This document shows positions 17,738 to 24,680 of a stretch of DNA of 64,000 bases, one piece after another; position 1 is the stretch's first letter; the number at the start of each line of letters is the position of its first letter. The notes beneath the pieces are model-generated. The model ran no database searches. It was given only the letters and a program-made list of their open reading frames with translations, and had not been told where the DNA came from. The stretch comes from a phage. Made by a program: the position numbers and the translations under genes. The DNA lies in the sequence record PZ445439.1. One strand, 5' to 3'.

Positions 17738-18040
17738 CTAAAAGAAACTTCTTTCACAATTTTTTCCACTGAACCAGGCGCTCACTGCTTTCTTAGTCTC
17801 GGGAGCAGTGTTATCCATAAACCATTCAAAGGCAGCCTTTTTATGATTCTGGAGGGCTTCTCGGGCTTTAATCTGCTCACGGTCTATTAACACTAACATA
17901 TGAGCCTTTCTTGTCACCAGGGGCTTCTTATGATTTTTTGAATACTCCCAATCATTTGTCCATCGCATTGTCGTTGCGAATTGAAGTACAGCTTCTTTAA
18001 TTTTAGTTTCGTAAATTTCACGAGCCTTTGAGTATAACAT
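17738..18040 (-). CDS. hypothetical protein
   Basis: ATG at 18040 with GGAGGT RBS. Confidence 0.45.
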   Translation of the reverse strand: MLYSKAREIYETKIKEAVLQFATTMRWTNDWEYSKNHKKPLVTRKAHMLVLIDREQIKAREALQNHKKAAFEWFMDNTAPETKKAVSAWFSGKNCERSFF

Positions 18041-18141
18041 TATTACCTCCATTTACCAGTTTAATTCTAGTCATCTTTTTGATGGCAGTCCATATAATCT
18101 ATTTCTGAACTGCCTTTTTGTCTTAGAAGGTCTCTTATGAA

Positions 18142-19110
18142 TTATTTCAGAAGAGTAACCTCAGCAATTTCTTCCCAACCGTTTTTGTCGGTCATAATAA
18201 AGTCAGCAAGATAAAGAGCAGTACGCAGTGAAACATTGCGTAAACGATTAACATTGACTTTCATCCATGATAATGCTTTATAAGTTTCTTCATCAGAAAG
18301 ACCGCGCTTTTGCATCATGTCAGTTGAAAGAATAACATCTTCAACCCTGACCATAATTTCTTCATTAGTGTGAACACCTAAATCTAAATAAACTGAGCGG
18401 GACACTAATGCTTGTAAATGTGGAGCAAGTTTAGTACCACGGTCTAATTCGCGGTCAATGTCAACGTTTGTGATAAAAACAATCGTTCCTTTAAATTCAA
18501 ACTCACGCTCAATGCCTTTTTCTTCTAAGTAAGAAGATGCAGTGCTCCAGCAGACTTTACGGGTCTCTCCGGTGTCTAGAGCAGCTTTTAGAAGATTAAG
18601 AATGTCCATATCAGAGAAAACATCCACATCATCAATCAAAAGGACAGAATTCTCTTCACGATTATTCCAGAGCTGCTCATAAAGACCGATACCAGAGATT
18701 TTACCATTAATGCTTTTATACTCAATGTATCCAACATCATTTGCTTTATTTAAAGCTTTATCTAAAGAATACGTTTTACCAATACCTGCCGCACCAGAGA
18801 TAATTAATGAACGAATGTTTCCGTTAATAATACCATTCGTCATCATTCCCATAACATTAAATCTTTTATTAATGCGGGTTTTCATATCTTCATATGATTC
18901 TTTAACTTCTTCAACTTTTACACCATCATATGAAATATCTGATTTGTAAACCCAAACACCGCGACGCTTACCGTCAATTTCAACAAAAACTTTACCATCT
19001 CCTTGTGCATCCACCGGAGCATTATCTGGGAACCATTCGCCTAAGAGCTCAAAAGTTCCAGAGATTTCTTTACCGAAGTAGATACCCTTATTGATAGTTA
19101 CAGTTTTCAT
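18142..19110 (-). CDS. P-loop AAA-type ATPase
   Basis: Walker A GAAGIGKT, Walker B LLIDDVD; ATG at 19110 with GGAGAAT RBS. Confidence 0.6.
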   Translation of the reverse strand: MKTVTINKGIYFGKEISGTFELLGEWFPDNAPVDAQGDGKVFVEIDGKRRGVWVYKSDISYDGVKVEEVKESYEDMKTRINKRFNVMGMMTNGIINGNIRSLIISGAAGIGKTYSLDKALNKANDVGYIEYKSINGKISGIGLYEQLWNNREENSVLLIDDVDVFSDMDILNLLKAALDTGETRKVCWSTASSYLEEKGIEREFEFKGTIVFITNVDIDRELDRGTKLAPHLQALVSRSVYLDLGVHTNEEIMVRVEDVILSTDMMQKRGLSDEETYKALSWMKVNVNRLRNVSLRTALYLADFIMTDKNGWEEIAEVTLLK

Positions 19111-19130
19111 TTTATTCTCCAAATCCGTAT

Positions 19131-19153
19131 TAGTTGATAGTTGTATAGTACCA
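19131..19153 (-). repeat. 23-bp promoter-associated repeat (copy 2)
   Basis: identical to 17692..17714. Confidence 0.8.
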
Positions 19154-19175
19154 TAAAGCTTTATGCGTGTAAACA
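19143..19175 (-). promoter_or_regulatory. T4 early-type promoter with A/T-rich UP element
   Basis: minus strand TTTTTCACAAAACTGTTTACA...TACTATAC upstream of AAA ATPase gene. Confidence 0.55.
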
Positions 19176-19203
19176 GTTTTGTGAAAAATTTTTAAAATAA
19201 AAA

Positions 19204-19221
19204 GGGAGCCCGAAGGCTCCC
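19204..19221 (-). terminator. hairpin GGGAGCC-UUCG-GGCUCCC
   Basis: 7-bp GC stem with UUCG loop directly 3' of nucleotidyltransferase gene. Confidence 0.55.
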
Positions 19222-19223
19222 TA

Positions 19224-20237
19224 TCATTTATAATAACTTCGATGGTTTTCGAGATACACCCTTTCAAGGAAGTCATCCCAGAAACTCATGTCTACTTTTT
19301 GCTGCATACCGTTCTTAGAAGCTTCAATGGATGCTGCTTCTACTCGATCGACCACATCTTCCAAAAACTCTTGAACCGTTTTAAACGGATGCTTACCCAA
19401 CTTCACGTCGAGAATAAATGGAGCATCTTTGAGTGGATAGACCAAGTCGCCAGTTTTGTAAATTTCCAACAGTTGAAGTCCACCACGACAAGCATGACTC
19501 AGGGCTTTCCAGTCAATGCCCTCATTCGCTTCAGCCTTACGAGCGCGTTCACCATATTCAGCATCTAATTTGTTCAGTGACTGCTTAAGCTCAATAAGAG
19601 AAAGCGTTGTCTGATATTTACGACCCAGCACAGTGTAGAACGTCTGTGGGCCTGTTTTCTCATGATTATGGAATACCCATTCACAGAATTCGTTTTCTGG
19701 AAGACGATGCTTAATATCTTCAACCTTGGTACGACGCTGCTTAATAGAACCATCTTCTTGATAGTCAACCCACTGATCAGGGATTTGATTAACTACTTTC
19801 AATACATCACGTAATGCAGCCAAACGAGAACCCTTAACGCCATATTTAGAAGCTTGCTTGCGGACATATCCTAAATAGGATTTCATGTTAGTCGTATAAA
19901 AACGAGAACGGTTGTCTTGAATAAACTTCCATACGTCAGGCAAATCAGATTTAACCACTAGTTCAGGTGGAGTGTGAAGCATATCTAATGCTACAGTTTC
20001 ACCATCTGCTGCTAATTTAAAGAAATACTTAAGACTATACAATTCGTGGTCAATATCATCTTTAGTGTTTTTAGATGATGTGTTGTTAGTGTTTTTACTC
20101 ATGTGCTCTTTAACGTTTCCAATAAGAATATCACGAGCAGGAGGAACAAAAATTTCTTTAAAATCTACATCAGATTCTGGGGTAGAAGTTCCATAAAGAT
20201 GACTACCAAAATAGCTTTTCATTACTGTTTTCATCAT
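19224..20237 (-). CDS. Pol-beta superfamily nucleotidyltransferase
   Basis: GS-x10-DVD motif (YFGSHLYGTSTPESDVDF) near N-terminus; 337 aa. Confidence 0.6.
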   Translation of the reverse strand: MMKTVMKSYFGSHLYGTSTPESDVDFKEIFVPPARDILIGNVKEHMSKNTNNTSSKNTKDDIDHELYSLKYFFKLAADGETVALDMLHTPPELVVKSDLPDVWKFIQDNRSRFYTTNMKSYLGYVRKQASKYGVKGSRLAALRDVLKVVNQIPDQWVDYQEDGSIKQRRTKVEDIKHRLPENEFCEWVFHNHEKTGPQTFYTVLGRKYQTTLSLIELKQSLNKLDAEYGERARKAEANEGIDWKALSHACRGGLQLLEIYKTGDLVYPLKDAPFILDVKLGKHPFKTVQEFLEDVVDRVEAASIEASKNGMQQKVDMSFWDDFLERVYLENHRSYYK

Positions 20238-20695
20238 TCAGCCTTATATTCAATAACAGGACACACTTTAGCTTTACGGGCTTTTAAAAATTCGATAATA
20301 AGAGATTTCTTAGGTTGAATAGGAGGTAAATCTTTATACGCTCTATTAATATTTTCTACGTGTAAAGCATAATCCTTTTTCCATTTATAATTTTTATATT
20401 TTTCACGCAAACGCGCAGGAATAACAAATGAACCGATAATAAGTAAAACAACCAAAAGAGCAAGTATAAATGCCGATGGAAGAAGAGTCCATAAACTACC
20501 GAAAATAAGCCAACGTTGTAGACTTTCTGCACAAATAATTGTTAGCCCTACGAGTATAGCACACCCAAAAATAAAAACAAAAAATGTAGGGATAGCAATA
20601 GACCAAAAGTATGCACATAGTGTCTTAGGCCGTTGCCATTCGTCGTTAAACAATTTGAACAATTTATAGTGCCAAGAGTTTTCATTAATAATCAT
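20234..20695 (-). CDS. membrane protein
   Basis: 153 aa; 3 hydrophobic segments. Confidence 0.45.
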   Translation of the reverse strand: MIINENSWHYKLFKLFNDEWQRPKTLCAYFWSIAIPTFFVFIFGCAILVGLTIICAESLQRWLIFGSLWTLLPSAFILALLVVLLIIGSFVIPARLREKYKNYKWKKDYALHVENINRAYKDLPPIQPKKSLIIEFLKARKAKVCPVIEYKAE

Positions 20696-20697
20696 AA

Positions 20698-21219
20698 TTA
20701 TCCTTTCATTGAAGGTGTAATAGTTGTTAAATACTTAATCATAGCTTCAGCTTCTGATTTTGATAATGAAATTTCTCCATTGTTTTGACGAATAGAAATA
20801 AAATCCGGATGACGGTCACCACCAGCTTTTAAAACACACATATAAGTATCAGCTTCGTCTTCAATATTTGAAATGATTGAAGCAGTTCCACATGAATGTG
20901 GTTTTTGATAAATCAATACGGCTTTTCTTCCACCATTTGACTGTTCATAGGCTTTTAATACATCAAACAAATCAGTTCTTTTATCAATAGCTAAAATGTT
21001 ATTTTCATCTTCAATGTTAAATCCTTCGGATACTTCATAAAGCGTTACCCATAAATCACCAATGTCAATAACAGCATTTACGTTTCCACGGCTTTCAAGA
21101 GTATTACAAATTTTCTTGATTTCGTCATAACTCATTTTAATAATATCATCTCCTTGACTAAGGAAGATGTCATTTTTAAATTCAACACGAATTAAACCAC
21201 TTTCACTTGAAATATACAT
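20698..21219 (-). CDS. hypothetical protein (tandem paralogue A)
   Basis: 173 aa; C-terminus SKSEAEAMIKYLTTITPSM resembles neighbour. Confidence 0.5.
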   Translation of the reverse strand: MYISSESGLIRVEFKNDIFLSQGDDIIKMSYDEIKKICNTLESRGNVNAVIDIGDLWVTLYEVSEGFNIEDENNILAIDKRTDLFDVLKAYEQSNGGRKAVLIYQKPHSCGTASIISNIEDEADTYMCVLKAGGDRHPDFISIRQNNGEISLSKSEAEAMIKYLTTITPSMKG

Positions 21220-21225
21220 ATTTCC

Positions 21226-21771
21226 TCACTTTGAAATCATAGTTGGAATGACAGAATCAAGATAAGTCTTTAGCGCAATAGCTTCATCTTTGGTAAATGT
21301 GACAATATGCGATCGAAAATCATCAGTTTGACGAATAGTTAAGACATCTCCATCTTCATAGCATTTTGATACATTTAAAACAGTTTCATCATTCTGATCG
21401 CAAGCATTAGTAATAATAGCATTGCGATTTTTAAACCATTTTAAAATGTGTTTTCTTTCATTAGAATAATAAAAATATTTAATCTTAGTTATAAAATTAT
21501 CCCAATTGTTAATTGATAAGCATATAGACTCGCTTTCAATATTAAATCCTGGGCATAAAGAATAAAAATGAATTTTATGCTCATCATTAATGCTTACAAT
21601 TTTATCAGTATAAGGATTTTCAATTTGGGTTAAATGAATGATTTCACTAGGCGTAAAATATAGCATATCGTCTTCTTGTGTCAAACGATACATATTATTT
21701 ACTTTTTCTATAGCCAATTCACCAAAAAGTGAACTAACTTCTAATACTAATCGTTTTGCCTCTCCCATCAT
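21226..21771 (-). CDS. hypothetical protein (tandem paralogue B)
   Basis: 181 aa; GFNIESES and TKDEAIALKTYLDSVIPTM match paralogue A. Confidence 0.5.
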   Translation of the reverse strand: MMGEAKRLVLEVSSLFGELAIEKVNNMYRLTQEDDMLYFTPSEIIHLTQIENPYTDKIVSINDEHKIHFYSLCPGFNIESESICLSINNWDNFITKIKYFYYSNERKHILKWFKNRNAIITNACDQNDETVLNVSKCYEDGDVLTIRQTDDFRSHIVTFTKDEAIALKTYLDSVIPTMISK

Positions 21772-21935
21772 TACATGCTCCTTTGAATAATATCAATAAT
21801 GTTGTTCACCAGATTATAAGTAAACATTGGGTAATTATATTGAATCATCACATACACAACAAACAAAACTTTCATTCTCTTCTCCTTGGCAGTTGACAAG
21901 ATTACTATACCATAACCTTGCCAACTTGTAAACCG

Positions 21936-22109
21936 TTAAATGTTGTTTTCAATAAAATTTTGAAGCTTTGTATGAGCATCAACCATGATTTTCATTTCTT
22001 CTTTGGCGAAAGCTGTACCTCTTTCCCGAGAAGAATATTCATAGTCAGAAACTGCATTAGCATATTCTTCAATTAGCTTCATTAAAAACATCTGCTTTTC
22101 AGTTTTCAT
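21936..22109 (-). CDS. hypothetical small protein (below ORF-track length cut-off)
   Basis: 57 codons; ATG overlaps stop of 22099..22293 (ATGAAAACTGA); GGTGG RBS. Confidence 0.35.
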   Translation of the reverse strand: MKTEKQMFLMKLIEEYANAVSDYEYSSRERGTAFAKEEMKIMVDAHTKLQNFIENNI

Positions 22110-22293
22110 TATTCCACCTAATCATTTCAAGATATTGAACTAACTTAGCTTTGGATTTATCCAAATCCTTTTTAGCTGCTTCTATACCGTCGTATGAATA
22201 TCCTTCACAATGCTCAACTGCTAATTGATATGAATCTATTTCAATATCACGTGCTAATTTAATGATTTTTTCAAACTGTTCATGTGTTAGCAT
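22099..22293 (-). CDS. hypothetical small protein
   Basis: 64 aa ORF. Confidence 0.4.
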   Translation of the reverse strand: MLTHEQFEKIIKLARDIEIDSYQLAVEHCEGYSYDGIEAAKKDLDKSKAKLVQYLEMIRWNNEN

Positions 22294-22295
22294 AC

Positions 22296-22535
22296 TTAAA
22301 CTCTCGTATTATGATCGATAATTTCATCGAGAAACATATCTAAAGCTTCTACAGCATTATCAACTTTCGCTTCAAGTTCATCAATACCTTTATTTGCAAT
22401 GCCTGACGAAAACCAAGCAAAGTCGCTAAGTTCCTCATCTGCTTTACGAATTAAAGCCACCAATTCTTTAATCTTATCCGCTTGTTCGATACTAATCATT
22501 ATTCCACCACATATGAAAGAGAGAATATTGCACAC
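22296..22535 (-). CDS. hypothetical small acidic protein
   Basis: 79 aa ORF. Confidence 0.4.
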
Positions 22536-22687
22536 GCCATGTGAGTTGCAACTTCATCACACATATTATAGCGTTTCTTAAGAAGTTCTACAAGTTCTTC
22601 ACTAGTAACTTCATCCATGTCGACGAAAAAATCACCATTAATGATGACGTAAATATTTCCTTCTTTATTGAGTGCTTCAATTTTCAT
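22499..22687 (-). CDS. hypothetical small protein
   Basis: ATG at 22687 with AGAGGAG RBS just downstream of early promoter. Confidence 0.4.
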
Positions 22688-22713
22688 GATGTTCTCCTCT
22701 TTATCTGATAGTT

Positions 22714-22745
22714 GTATAGTACCACAGCTCAAACGGAAAGTAAAC
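22714..22745 (-). promoter_or_regulatory. T4 early-type promoter
   Basis: minus strand GGTTTAC...TACTATAC following terminator hairpin. Confidence 0.5.
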
Positions 22746-22761
22746 CGGTAAAATGAAAAAA

Positions 22762-22777
22762 GTCTCCCGAAGGAGAC
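22762..22777 (-). terminator. rho-independent terminator (GUCUCC-UUCG-GGAGAC + U-run)
   Basis: hairpin followed by TTTTTTCATTTT on minus strand, 3' of ORF 22783..23169. Confidence 0.6.
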
Positions 22778-22782
22778 TAATG

Positions 22783-23169
22783 TTATTCGAGGGAAAGAAG
22801 ATATTTACTTTGATAAAACATTCCAGTAATATCATCTATCGTGCTTTGAATGGCTGGAGGCATTTCTTTATAAATGCTGTTAGATTGGTCTAGTATGCGA
22901 TCAATCATTTTAATTGTATCGGTAGGAAGTTTACTAGCATCTGGAATTGAAGGAGTGTATTTTCTACCAGAATACCCTAAATACTGCTCACCAAATTTGT
23001 CAATCAAATCTGGTAACTCAGAAAAAATAAAATCGTATGCTTTGTGTCTAGCATAACTTTTAGTTTCAAAATGTGCAGAATGAAAATAAGCTTGTGCAGC
23101 CATTAATAAACCTAAGTATTCATCTGCCTTTGAAGGTTTTCCACTTTGTGAAAAGTCGCTGAATTTCAT
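22783..23169 (-). CDS. hypothetical protein
   Basis: 128 aa ORF coupled to rI. Confidence 0.45.
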
Positions 23170-23459
23170 TCAGTCTCCAATTTAATGTTCATAATTCTAG
23201 CGTATGATTGTGCCATCTCCGCGCCTCGTTCTATACATTCAAAATCAGAAGAGCACGGGTCATTTTTATAGGTCGTTCTCATAAAACTATAGAATTGTTC
23301 AGACGATTCTACGCTTTTGTTTTCAAAAAGTGTATAAACATGCCTAATACCAGATTCCATAAATTTATCAAAATGAGGATCGACATTCGCTTCAATAGAT
23401 GGAGATAAAACAAATGACAATCCTAGCATGGCAAATAGTGCCGTTGCTTTTAAGGCCAT
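23166..23459 (-). CDS. rI: lysis-inhibition regulator RI (signal-anchored periplasmic protein)
   Basis: 97 aa; MALKATALFAMLGLSFVLSPSIEA signal sequence; sequence as recalled for T4 RI. Confidence 0.85.
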   Translation of the reverse strand: MALKATALFAMLGLSFVLSPSIEANVDPHFDKFMESGIRHVYTLFENKSVESSEQFYSFMRTTYKNDPCSSDFECIERGAEMAQSYARIMNIKLETE

Positions 23460-23471
23460 AAAGGCCTCCTA

Positions 23472-23684
23472 TCATTTTTGTCCTGTATTTACTTTATGCC
23501 GATGCACGGCCTTAACTTTATCAAGGTATTTTTCAAAATTTCGCAATCTGGTATAGTCTGCCGGAGATTGGTTGATTGATACTTCTCGACGCAAAGCTGA
23601 AATAACATTTCCAACTTCTCTACGAATTTCATCTAATTGAAGCACAGTAAGATTGCGAAGTTGCTTTTCAGTTAATTGTAGCAT
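23472..23684 (-). CDS. hypothetical basic protein
   Basis: 70 aa ORF between tk and rI. Confidence 0.45.
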
Positions 23685-23726
23685 ATATACCCCTTTAGTT
23701 AGATAAACCTATTTATAACTTTTGTG

Positions 23727-24308
23727 CTAATCTAGCTTTTTAGTTAATTCGTTCCAATGTTTTCTACATAAAGATACGTAAATTTCATCACCAATACAAA
23801 TTTGATCGCCTTCTTTAACTGGGGTTCCATCTTCCATTAATCGAGCGGTCATAATAGCTTTTTTACCACAGTGACAAACCGCTTTAAGCTCAATAAGTTT
23901 ATCAGCAATCGCCAAAAGTTCTTTAGAACCTTCAAATAATTTTCCAGCGAAATCAGTTCTTAATCCATAAGCCATAACAGGAACATTATATGTATCAACA
24001 ATTCGGCTTAATTGGTGTACTTGTTCAGTTTTTAAAAACTGAGCTTCATCTACAAATACGCAATGAATATCTTTTTGTGCTTCAGCCCATTTATAGAACT
24101 CGAAAATATCCATATCATCTGTAATAATATTCGCTTCCTGTTTAATTCCAATGCGAGAAACAACTTCACAGACAGAATCGCGAGTATCAATAGCAGGTTT
24201 AAGAACTAATACACCCATTCCACGTTCTTTATAATTATGCGCAGCAGTCAAAAGAGAAGCAGATTTTCCAGCATTCATTGCTGCATAAGTAAAAATTAAA
24301 CTCGCCAT
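23727..24308 (-). CDS. tk: thymidine kinase
   Basis: 193 aa; P-loop NAGKSASLL; C-terminal Cys zinc motif CHCG...C..C. Confidence 0.9.
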   Translation of the reverse strand: MASLIFTYAAMNAGKSASLLTAAHNYKERGMGVLVLKPAIDTRDSVCEVVSRIGIKQEANIITDDMDIFEFYKWAEAQKDIHCVFVDEAQFLKTEQVHQLSRIVDTYNVPVMAYGLRTDFAGKLFEGSKELLAIADKLIELKAVCHCGKKAIMTARLMEDGTPVKEGDQICIGDEIYVSLCRKHWNELTKKLD

Positions 24309-24309
24309 C

Positions 24310-24498
24310 TTAGTCCTTAGTTAAATTTTCTAAATATGTTTCTAAATCATTTTCAGCTTTATCGATAGATTTTACTAATTCGTAATATGTTTCAGCATCT
24401 CCATAATCAGAAGATAATTCAAAAGACAAATCCTTTTCTAAACTAATAATTTCACCAACTAAAAATAATATTTCGTTCTTTTGTTCGCGAGTAATCAT
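24310..24498 (-). CDS. hypothetical small acidic protein
   Basis: 62 aa; similar in pattern to the adjacent 61 aa ORF. Confidence 0.4.
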   Translation of the reverse strand: MITREQKNEILFLVGEIISLEKDLSFELSSDYGDAETYYELVKSIDKAENDLETYLENLTKD

Positions 24499-24680
24499 AC
24501 GGAATTTACATAATCAATAAGTTCTTGCTCTTTATTATCGAATTCTTTAGAAAGTTCTTCGTATTCATTTGCGCTAAAAGGACCGCATTCATCACAAACT
24601 TTTTCTAATTCACTATTTTTATCCATAACTTCGTGAATAAGAGAAAACAGCCTGTCTTTCTGTTCTTTACTTAGGCTCAT
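24495..24680 (-). CDS. hypothetical small acidic protein
   Basis: 61 aa. Confidence 0.4.
   Translation of the reverse strand: MSLSKEQKDRLFSLIHEVMDKNSELEKVCDECGPFSANEYEELSKEFDNKEQELIDYVNSV

Follow-up and report, generated by a model that had tools for sequence, protein, structure and literature searches.

MobD.1 and a diverged tandem paralogue between tk and nrdC.11 of a T4-like phage, with a predicted PC4/PUR-like repeat fold

The window analyzed here, a 64,000-nucleotide stretch of phage DNA (PZ445439.1), belongs to a T4-like phage of the genus Tequatrovirus, and the 2.1 kb surrounding the gene pair of interest match 504 phage records at 90–97% identity. The genes of this region all lie on the minus strand, in the transcription order tk, rI.1, rI, rI.-1, the small mobD.5 to mobD.2 open reading frames (ORFs), an ORF of 181 amino acids, one of 173, one of 153, nrdC.11, and nrdC.10 (Table 1). 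The initial annotation had singled out the 173- and 181-aa ORFs as neighbors with shared central and C-terminal motifs, and both the ORFs and the motifs (GFNIEDE / GFNIESE, and KSEAEAMIKYLTTITPSM / KDEAIALKTYLDSVIPTM) are found in the sequence just as it described them. The two ORFs are preceded by plausible ribosome-binding sites, AGGAG and GAGGA, 6–8 nt 5′ of the ATG.

Table 1. Features at and around the mobD.1 pair, in transcription order (window coordinates).
Feature	Position	Strand	Basis
tk	23727-24308	-	
Terminator-like hairpin preceding the apparent mobD.2–nrdC.11 unit	22778-22761		
Early-promoter-like site upstream of mobD.2 (GTTTACA, 17 nt, TGgTATAGT)	21904..21932	-	scan: 10/12 matches, extended -10
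mobD.2, 34 aa, first gene past the promoter-like site; stop overlaps the mobD.1 start region	21771..21875	-	sequence and RB51/T4 annotation
mobD.1, 181 aa, orthologue of T4 MobD.1 / y05I	21226..21771	-	ORF and homology
MobD.1 N-terminal two-repeat domain (predicted), ~residues 1–106	21771-21454	-	
MobD.1 C-terminal single repeat (predicted), residues 107–181	21453-21229	-	
Diverged tandem paralogue of mobD.1, 173 aa, RB32ORF097c type	20698..21219	-	ORF, BLASTP, Pfam, RB51 annotation
173-aa protein, N domain, residues 1–97	21219-20929	-	
173-aa protein, C repeat, residues 98–173	20928-20701	-	
153-aa membrane protein, RB32ORF096c type, PHROG 944, directly downstream of the 173-aa ORF	20234..20695	-	
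nrdC.11, RlaP-type (RNA-repair-associated) nucleotidyltransferase, last gene of the apparent unit	19224..20237	-	
Intrinsic-terminator-like hairpin just past nrdC.11 (8 pairs, 6 G-C, then a T run)	19203..19222	-	

Gene boundaries in this stretch are tight or overlapping, with the start of nrdC.11, for example, overlapping the stop of the 153-aa membrane-protein gene (ATGA). The hexamers of the promoter-like site upstream of mobD.2 are identical in T4 and RB51, while the T4 spacer differs at two positions in the alignment, and we take the arrangement of the site to resemble the T4 early-promoter consensus. Taken together, the promoter-like site, the flanking terminator-like hairpins, and the tight or overlapping boundaries suggest that mobD.2, mobD.1, its copy, the membrane-protein gene, and nrdC.11 form one early transcription unit. 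An Rfam sequence search gave no match.

The duplication and divergence proposed from the shared motifs hold up well under the pairwise alignment that had been suggested as a check, with homology extending over the full length of both ORFs. BLASTP aligns the 173- and 181-aa proteins end to end at 29% identity and 51% positives across 176 columns (E = 3e-12), and their Smith–Waterman score is 124, compared to 32 ± 5.4 for shuffled sequences (n = 2000; z = 17; best shuffle 65), with the N-terminal and C-terminal halves each significant separately (z = 9.8 and 8.5, respectively). Both ORFs exceed the Pfam gathering scores of PF24449 (T4_y05I_N, 24.9 bits) and PF24448 (T4_y05I_C, 27 bits): the 173-aa protein matches the former at E = 7.6e-33 (113.6 bits) and the latter at E = 9.5e-23 (80.8 bits), and the 181-aa protein does so at E = 1e-40 (138.8 bits) and E = 2e-20 (73.3 bits). 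Both also match PHROG 1502. We assign a negligible probability to the notion that the similarity is a product of chance or of the composition of AT-rich phage ORFs, or that one of the two ORFs is not a gene, as nothing was found in its favor beyond the identity being only 29%, whereas the alignment stands out significantly from composition-matched shuffles, as does each half by itself, the Pfam domain matches are shared, and both ORFs are intact in hundreds of genomes with dN/dS values well under 1. These values, calculated against four or five relatives, are 0.15–0.28 for mobD.1 and 0.14–0.32 for the 173-aa copy, and as such indicate purifying selection and hence real genes. For tk, rI.-1, rI, nrdC.11, and the membrane-protein gene, they lie between 0.00 and 0.16 in nearly all comparisons (one rI comparison gives 0.24). 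Both paralogues are thus genuine protein-coding genes that evolve faster than their neighbors, with purifying selection relaxed.

The 181-aa ORF is syntenic with mobD.1 of T4, sharing 85% identity with T4 MobD.1 and 91% with the RB51 gene. The 173-aa ORF is not a mobD.1 orthologue, as it shows 23–35% identity by domain and falls in a clade of its own; it is the counterpart of RB32ORF097c, which the RB51 GenBank record calls “similar to mobD.1”. We are therefore highly confident in identifying the ORFs as mobD.1 together with a diverged tandem copy. This assignment is correct but ordinary, since hundreds of phage genomes already carry the pair in their annotation, and the paralogy is on record through the RB51 entry and the Pfam curation of both domains. 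Both ORFs are full-length members of the T4 MobD.1 (y05I) family and do not differ from it in kind.

Unlike the window, T4 itself has no 173-aa copy. Window positions 18000–20238 and 21201–24499 align to T4 at 94–96% identity, and in place of window positions 20239–21200, T4 carries an 808-bp segment with the HNH endonuclease gene mobD, which bears out the remark in the initial annotation that this region holds mobD in T4. The replaced segment comprises the 153-aa membrane-protein ORF and the 173-aa ORF minus its first 19 nt, and BLASTN does not match it to the mobD segment of T4. In T4, the mobD.1 stop and a Shine–Dalgarno sequence are followed by ATG TTT ATT TCA AGT GGA (MFISSG), that is, by the first six codons of the 173-aa gene, after which the sequences diverge. 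Because these six codons persist after mobD.1, we conclude with high confidence that T4 descends from a pair-bearing genome, in which mobD displaced the second copy and the membrane-protein gene. The published mobD insertion site, nrdC.11/mobD.1, agrees with this replacement (PMC2988022). The name “mobD.1” is only positional: neither the 173-aa nor the 181-aa ORF carries an HNH Pfam domain, and neither is a MobD HNH homing endonuclease. We note that RefSeq gives the product name [quoted passage not shown] to several mobD.x proteins (mobD.4 in NC_000866, NC_028780, and mobD.1 in NC_012635). We discarded this name, as it has no Pfam support and looks like a confusion of T4 mobD (a mobile endonuclease) with a bacterial mob gene.

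As far as presence and absence across relatives are concerned, the last of the checks that had been suggested, tblastn searches of the phage collection find mobD.1 homologues in 732 records, the 173-aa copy at 80% identity or more in 433, and T4-type mobD at 95% identity or more in 47. The pair occurs in about 430 phage records, nearly all from T4-like phages, and is thus the common state, with T4 the exception. These counts come from the phage collection because a scan of viral contigs yielded 7 loci, a number too small to survey the population. In Mosigvirus and Dhakavirus, mobD.1 is present in one copy, and the membrane-protein gene and nrdC.11 come immediately after it. In neighbor-joining trees, which serve as a rough guide, the 173-aa clade branches outside the clade of Tequatrovirus and Mosigvirus MobD.1, suggesting that the duplication is either old or was followed by fast divergence. 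Some metagenomic contigs carry, at the place of the pair, a hybrid gene (P0011) with a MobD.1 N domain and a 173-type C end, the product expected if the two paralogues recombined.

Both genes can be lost. Engineered T4 from which nrdC.11 through mobD.3 have been deleted is viable (PMC9825161), and in a T2 record, mobD.1 and the 173-aa copy are each broken by two frameshifts. With the copy gone from T4 as well, we are highly confident that mobD.1 and its copy are dispensable. An apparent T2 variant of the 173-aa protein with 55% identity is not a divergent allele but this doubly frameshifted gene. Separately, in one family member (P0044), MobD.1 residues 1–50 are fused to the C-terminal portion of NrdC.11, through a deletion that removes the rest of mobD.1, the copy, the membrane-protein gene, and the start of nrdC.11, and another is a truncated MobD.1 from a T4 derivative (P0043). 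Both fit the reported viable nrdC.11–mobD.3 deletions.

The y05I family is small: when 1.84 billion representative proteins were scanned in full with HMMER, only 29 clusters were recovered, among them six full-length types and about thirteen free-standing C-domain proteins of 67–87 aa, and no informative domain fusion was found among the 29. One protein combining PF24448 with a peptidase domain (P0008) comes from a single 1.3-kb contig, and was treated as unreliable. The members considered here come from phage genomes or phage-like contigs, and all named sources are T4-like phages, with two matches labeled E. coli and Enterococcus probably representing phage DNA in those samples.

Structure prediction, which the initial annotation had also recommended, gave a confident model of MobD.1 composed of PC4/PUR-like repeats. 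Calculated from 21 sequences including free-standing C repeats, this model has a mean pLDDT of 89.8 and a pTM of 0.71, and consists of three successive elements, β4-α (residues 7–49), β4-α (57–105), and β5-α (109–174). Its highest-scoring fold matches are Drosophila Pur-alpha repeats I–II (11.1), Whirly p24 (8.7), MRP2 (8.5), and StWhy2 (8.3), followed by DUF155 (7.9), the KhtT N domain (7.6), PUR repeat III (7.4 and 7.0), an SsgA-like protein (7.2), Borrelia Pur-alpha (6.7), and PC4 homologues (5.0–6.0). Among predicted viral structures, Foldseek retrieved nothing beyond family members lacking an assigned function. An independent model of the 173-aa protein, from a 14-sequence alignment, is weak, with a pLDDT of 68 that falls to about 50 in the C half, and its N domain is again β4-α-β4-α. 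Human PURA repeats I–II are its sole Foldseek match with good probability (0.82). In view of its low pLDDT, and since Foldseek found nothing in the PDB at E ≤ 0.001, we take this second model as a lead only.

In a profile–profile comparison, repeat 1 matches the C repeat (probability 87%, E = 4e-6), in agreement with weak Pfam cross-matches between T4_y05I_N positions 15–43, T4_y05I_C, and DUF7189. No such similarity was found between repeat 2 and either repeat 1 or repeat 3 (E about 0.1), and thus the place of repeat 2 in the three-repeat reading comes from the model only. In that model, two ββββα repeats make up one intramolecular domain, as is characteristic of PUR domains, and we consider a three-repeat PC4/PUR-like fold to be distinctly likely. 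Repeats 1 and 2 would then pair within the chain to give a PC4-like “type I” domain, as in PUR-alpha and Whirly proteins, and the third repeat, the most conserved part of the protein, would be a lone “type II” repeat of the sort that also appears as a free-standing 67–87-aa protein in other T4-like genera. In Pur-alpha, a type I domain is likewise followed by a lone type II repeat, and it is the third repeat that makes the dimer (PMC7549692).

Similarity to these known systems is confined to the predicted fold. In Pfam, neither ORF matches PurA, Whirly, or PC4 at E ≤ 0.1, sequences in the PDB gave no match at E ≤ 10, and an NCBIfam sequence search was likewise without a match. Compared to PUR-alpha, the phage proteins show no detectable sequence similarity to the PurA model, are acidic, and have five predicted strands in the C repeat. 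The Whirly proteins (p24, StWhy2) and trypanosome MRP1/MRP2 are basic tetramers with no sequence match to the phage proteins, which have no match to the Whirly Pfam model and in which no KGKAAL-type motif, which we take to be the conserved Whirly motif, was seen. The single-repeat PC4-like proteins (the PC4 C-terminal domain, Borrelia Pur-alpha, YdbC, and the PC4-like protein of phage T5) show no sequence similarity either. The y05I_C proteins are mostly acidic and end in a strongly conserved tail, YLNSVIPTMK, that to our knowledge has no counterpart among them.

Taking the above into account, the best overall explanation, which we hold tentatively and somewhat short of calling it probable, is that the two genes are a diverged mobD.1 pair encoding a dimeric accessory early (host-takeover) factor that would bind single-stranded nucleic acid, possibly acting together with the membrane protein encoded by the adjacent gene. 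By analogy with PUR-alpha repeat III and with single-repeat PC4-like proteins, the lone C repeat would complete its fold by pairing with a second copy, such that the y05I proteins would be dimeric, each paralogue pairing either with itself or with the other. The occurrence of free-standing C repeats is the second ground for this proposal. We consider dimerization through the C repeat to be evenly balanced between being right and being wrong. The β-sheet faces of the N-terminal domain would be the surface that binds single-stranded RNA or DNA, and here we are more hesitant, regarding such binding as conceivable but somewhat doubtful. All four of the best fold matches of the MobD.1 model are nucleic-acid binders, but fold relatives that do not bind nucleic acids score nearly as high. 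In addition, the known nucleic-acid-binding PC4-like domains are basic, whereas the y05I members examined are nearly all acidic (pI 4.2–5.3, net charge -1 to -22), the exceptions being two free-standing C-repeat proteins that are neutral or basic (pI 6.7 and 9.2). The most conserved residues of the N domain are acidic or hydrophobic (LTQEDD, GFNIExE), and the wider family has no invariant basic or aromatic residue. This acidity weakens the nucleic-acid-binding reading without overturning it. If the y05I proteins do bind RNA, the unit shared with nrdC.10 and nrdC.11 could be meaningful. We found no experimental or functional study of “mobD.1” or “y05I” in the literature, in keeping with the initial annotation, which had assigned no function.

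The Pfam name “putative transcription factor” points to a narrower role, in which the proteins would change transcription on binding RNA polymerase or the promoter DNA of phage or host. Members of the same fold class, namely PC4, Whirly p24, and Pur-alpha, are described as transcriptional regulators, and the genes appear to be expressed early. However, the Pfam name seems to derive from the fold class only, the Pfam scan finds no helix-turn-helix or other motif for binding double-stranded DNA, the proteins are acidic, and the genes are dispensable, with no transcription defect reported for T4, T2, or engineered T4, where they are missing or disrupted. We therefore consider a strict transcription factor to be very unlikely.

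The main rival reading is that this acidic PC4-like fold acts as a scaffold for protein interactions, by analogy with SsgA/SsgB or the KhtT N domain, although these show no sequence relation to y05I and the parallel is one of analogy only. On this account, the y05I proteins would be protein-binding adaptors or decoys that work with the downstream membrane protein or with a host protein, and the pair would be an accessory module for host takeover, exclusion, or anti-defense. Consistent with this, nearly all members examined are acidic, with conserved residues that are acidic or hydrophobic, and the fast evolution, dispensability, and copy-number variation of the genes are typical of accessory conflict genes. 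Furthermore, in six genera, the gene for a homologue of the 153-aa membrane protein is immediately preceded by one that encodes y05I_C, often with overlapping stop and start codons, an order seen in Tequatrovirus, Mosigvirus, Dhakavirus, Tegunavirus, and Jiaodavirus, as well as on 158–173-kb contigs (L007–L010), which makes the membrane protein a candidate partner. In one of these contigs (L008), two C-repeat ORFs related at E = 7e-8 stand in tandem, and in a Jiaodavirus, the tandem pair is a DUF7189 gene followed by a y05I_C gene. Against this, the whole tk–rI–nrdC region is syntenic in these phages, and thus the adjacency alone is weak evidence; T4 has lost the membrane protein but kept mobD.1; the family of the membrane protein extends beyond that of y05I (951 phage records) and has a member in a jumbo phage with no y05I neighbor; no PADLOC model matches (none below E = 0.07); and, as noted above, the top four fold matches are nucleic-acid binders. 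We consider the adaptor role possible, though on balance unlikely.

A more specific form of it, in which two different chains of an acidic, phage-specific PC4/PUR offshoot, either the tandem paralogues or the free-standing C repeats that are paired in other genera, would heterodimerize via the conserved C repeat and dock on the membrane protein as an early host-takeover or exclusion module, strikes us as quite improbable. If true, it would mean that the PC4/PUR fold has been reused for protein recognition, in a module previously unrecognized in T4-like phages. Returning to the dimeric single-strand binder that we tentatively favor, its value is modest: it offers a testable fold-level hypothesis (PUR-alpha-like, three-repeat, and probably dimeric) for a conserved T4-group gene, alongside the documented remodeling of one locus by duplication, paralogue fusion, displacement by a homing endonuclease that left six codons as a scar, and decay through frameshifts. 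No new type of system emerges from it.

Several further features of the region were observed. The strongest σ70-like match in the region (TTGACA, 16 nt, TATATT, with TG; 11/12) lies at 21657-21684 on the minus strand, within mobD.1 codons ~30–39, where the codons for the conserved LTQEDD form the -35 hexamer; it could be either a chance match or an internal promoter for the downstream genes. In the 3′ part of the 153-aa ORF (~20345-20371, minus strand), a MotA-box-like sequence, TATGCTTTA, is followed 11 nt further by TATTAAT, and is a possible middle promoter for nrdC.11. The product of nrdC.10 (18142-19122, minus strand) has weak AAA/STAND NTPase matches. Near it, RB51 carries RB32ORF093c, a seg-like endonuclease gene inserted between nrdC.9 and nrdC.10, which the window lacks (18127–18160, compared to 1230–1960 of the RB51 locus, L001), another endonuclease presence/absence polymorphism near the pair. 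Just upstream of the pair, three adjacent small ORFs of 57, 64, and 79 aa at the mobD.2a, mobD.3, and mobD.4 positions (21936-22535, minus strand) all match DUF7438 (E ~1e-16), and constitute a second tandem paralogue array. Two ORFs of 61–62 aa located downstream of tk in window coordinates (24310-24680, minus strand) resemble them by eye. Finally, contigs with a hybrid y05I gene (L014–L016) carry an 88-aa “Phage_tudor” (PF24144) ORF and a fourth DUF7438 ORF at the mobD.2 position, showing further mosaicism upstream.
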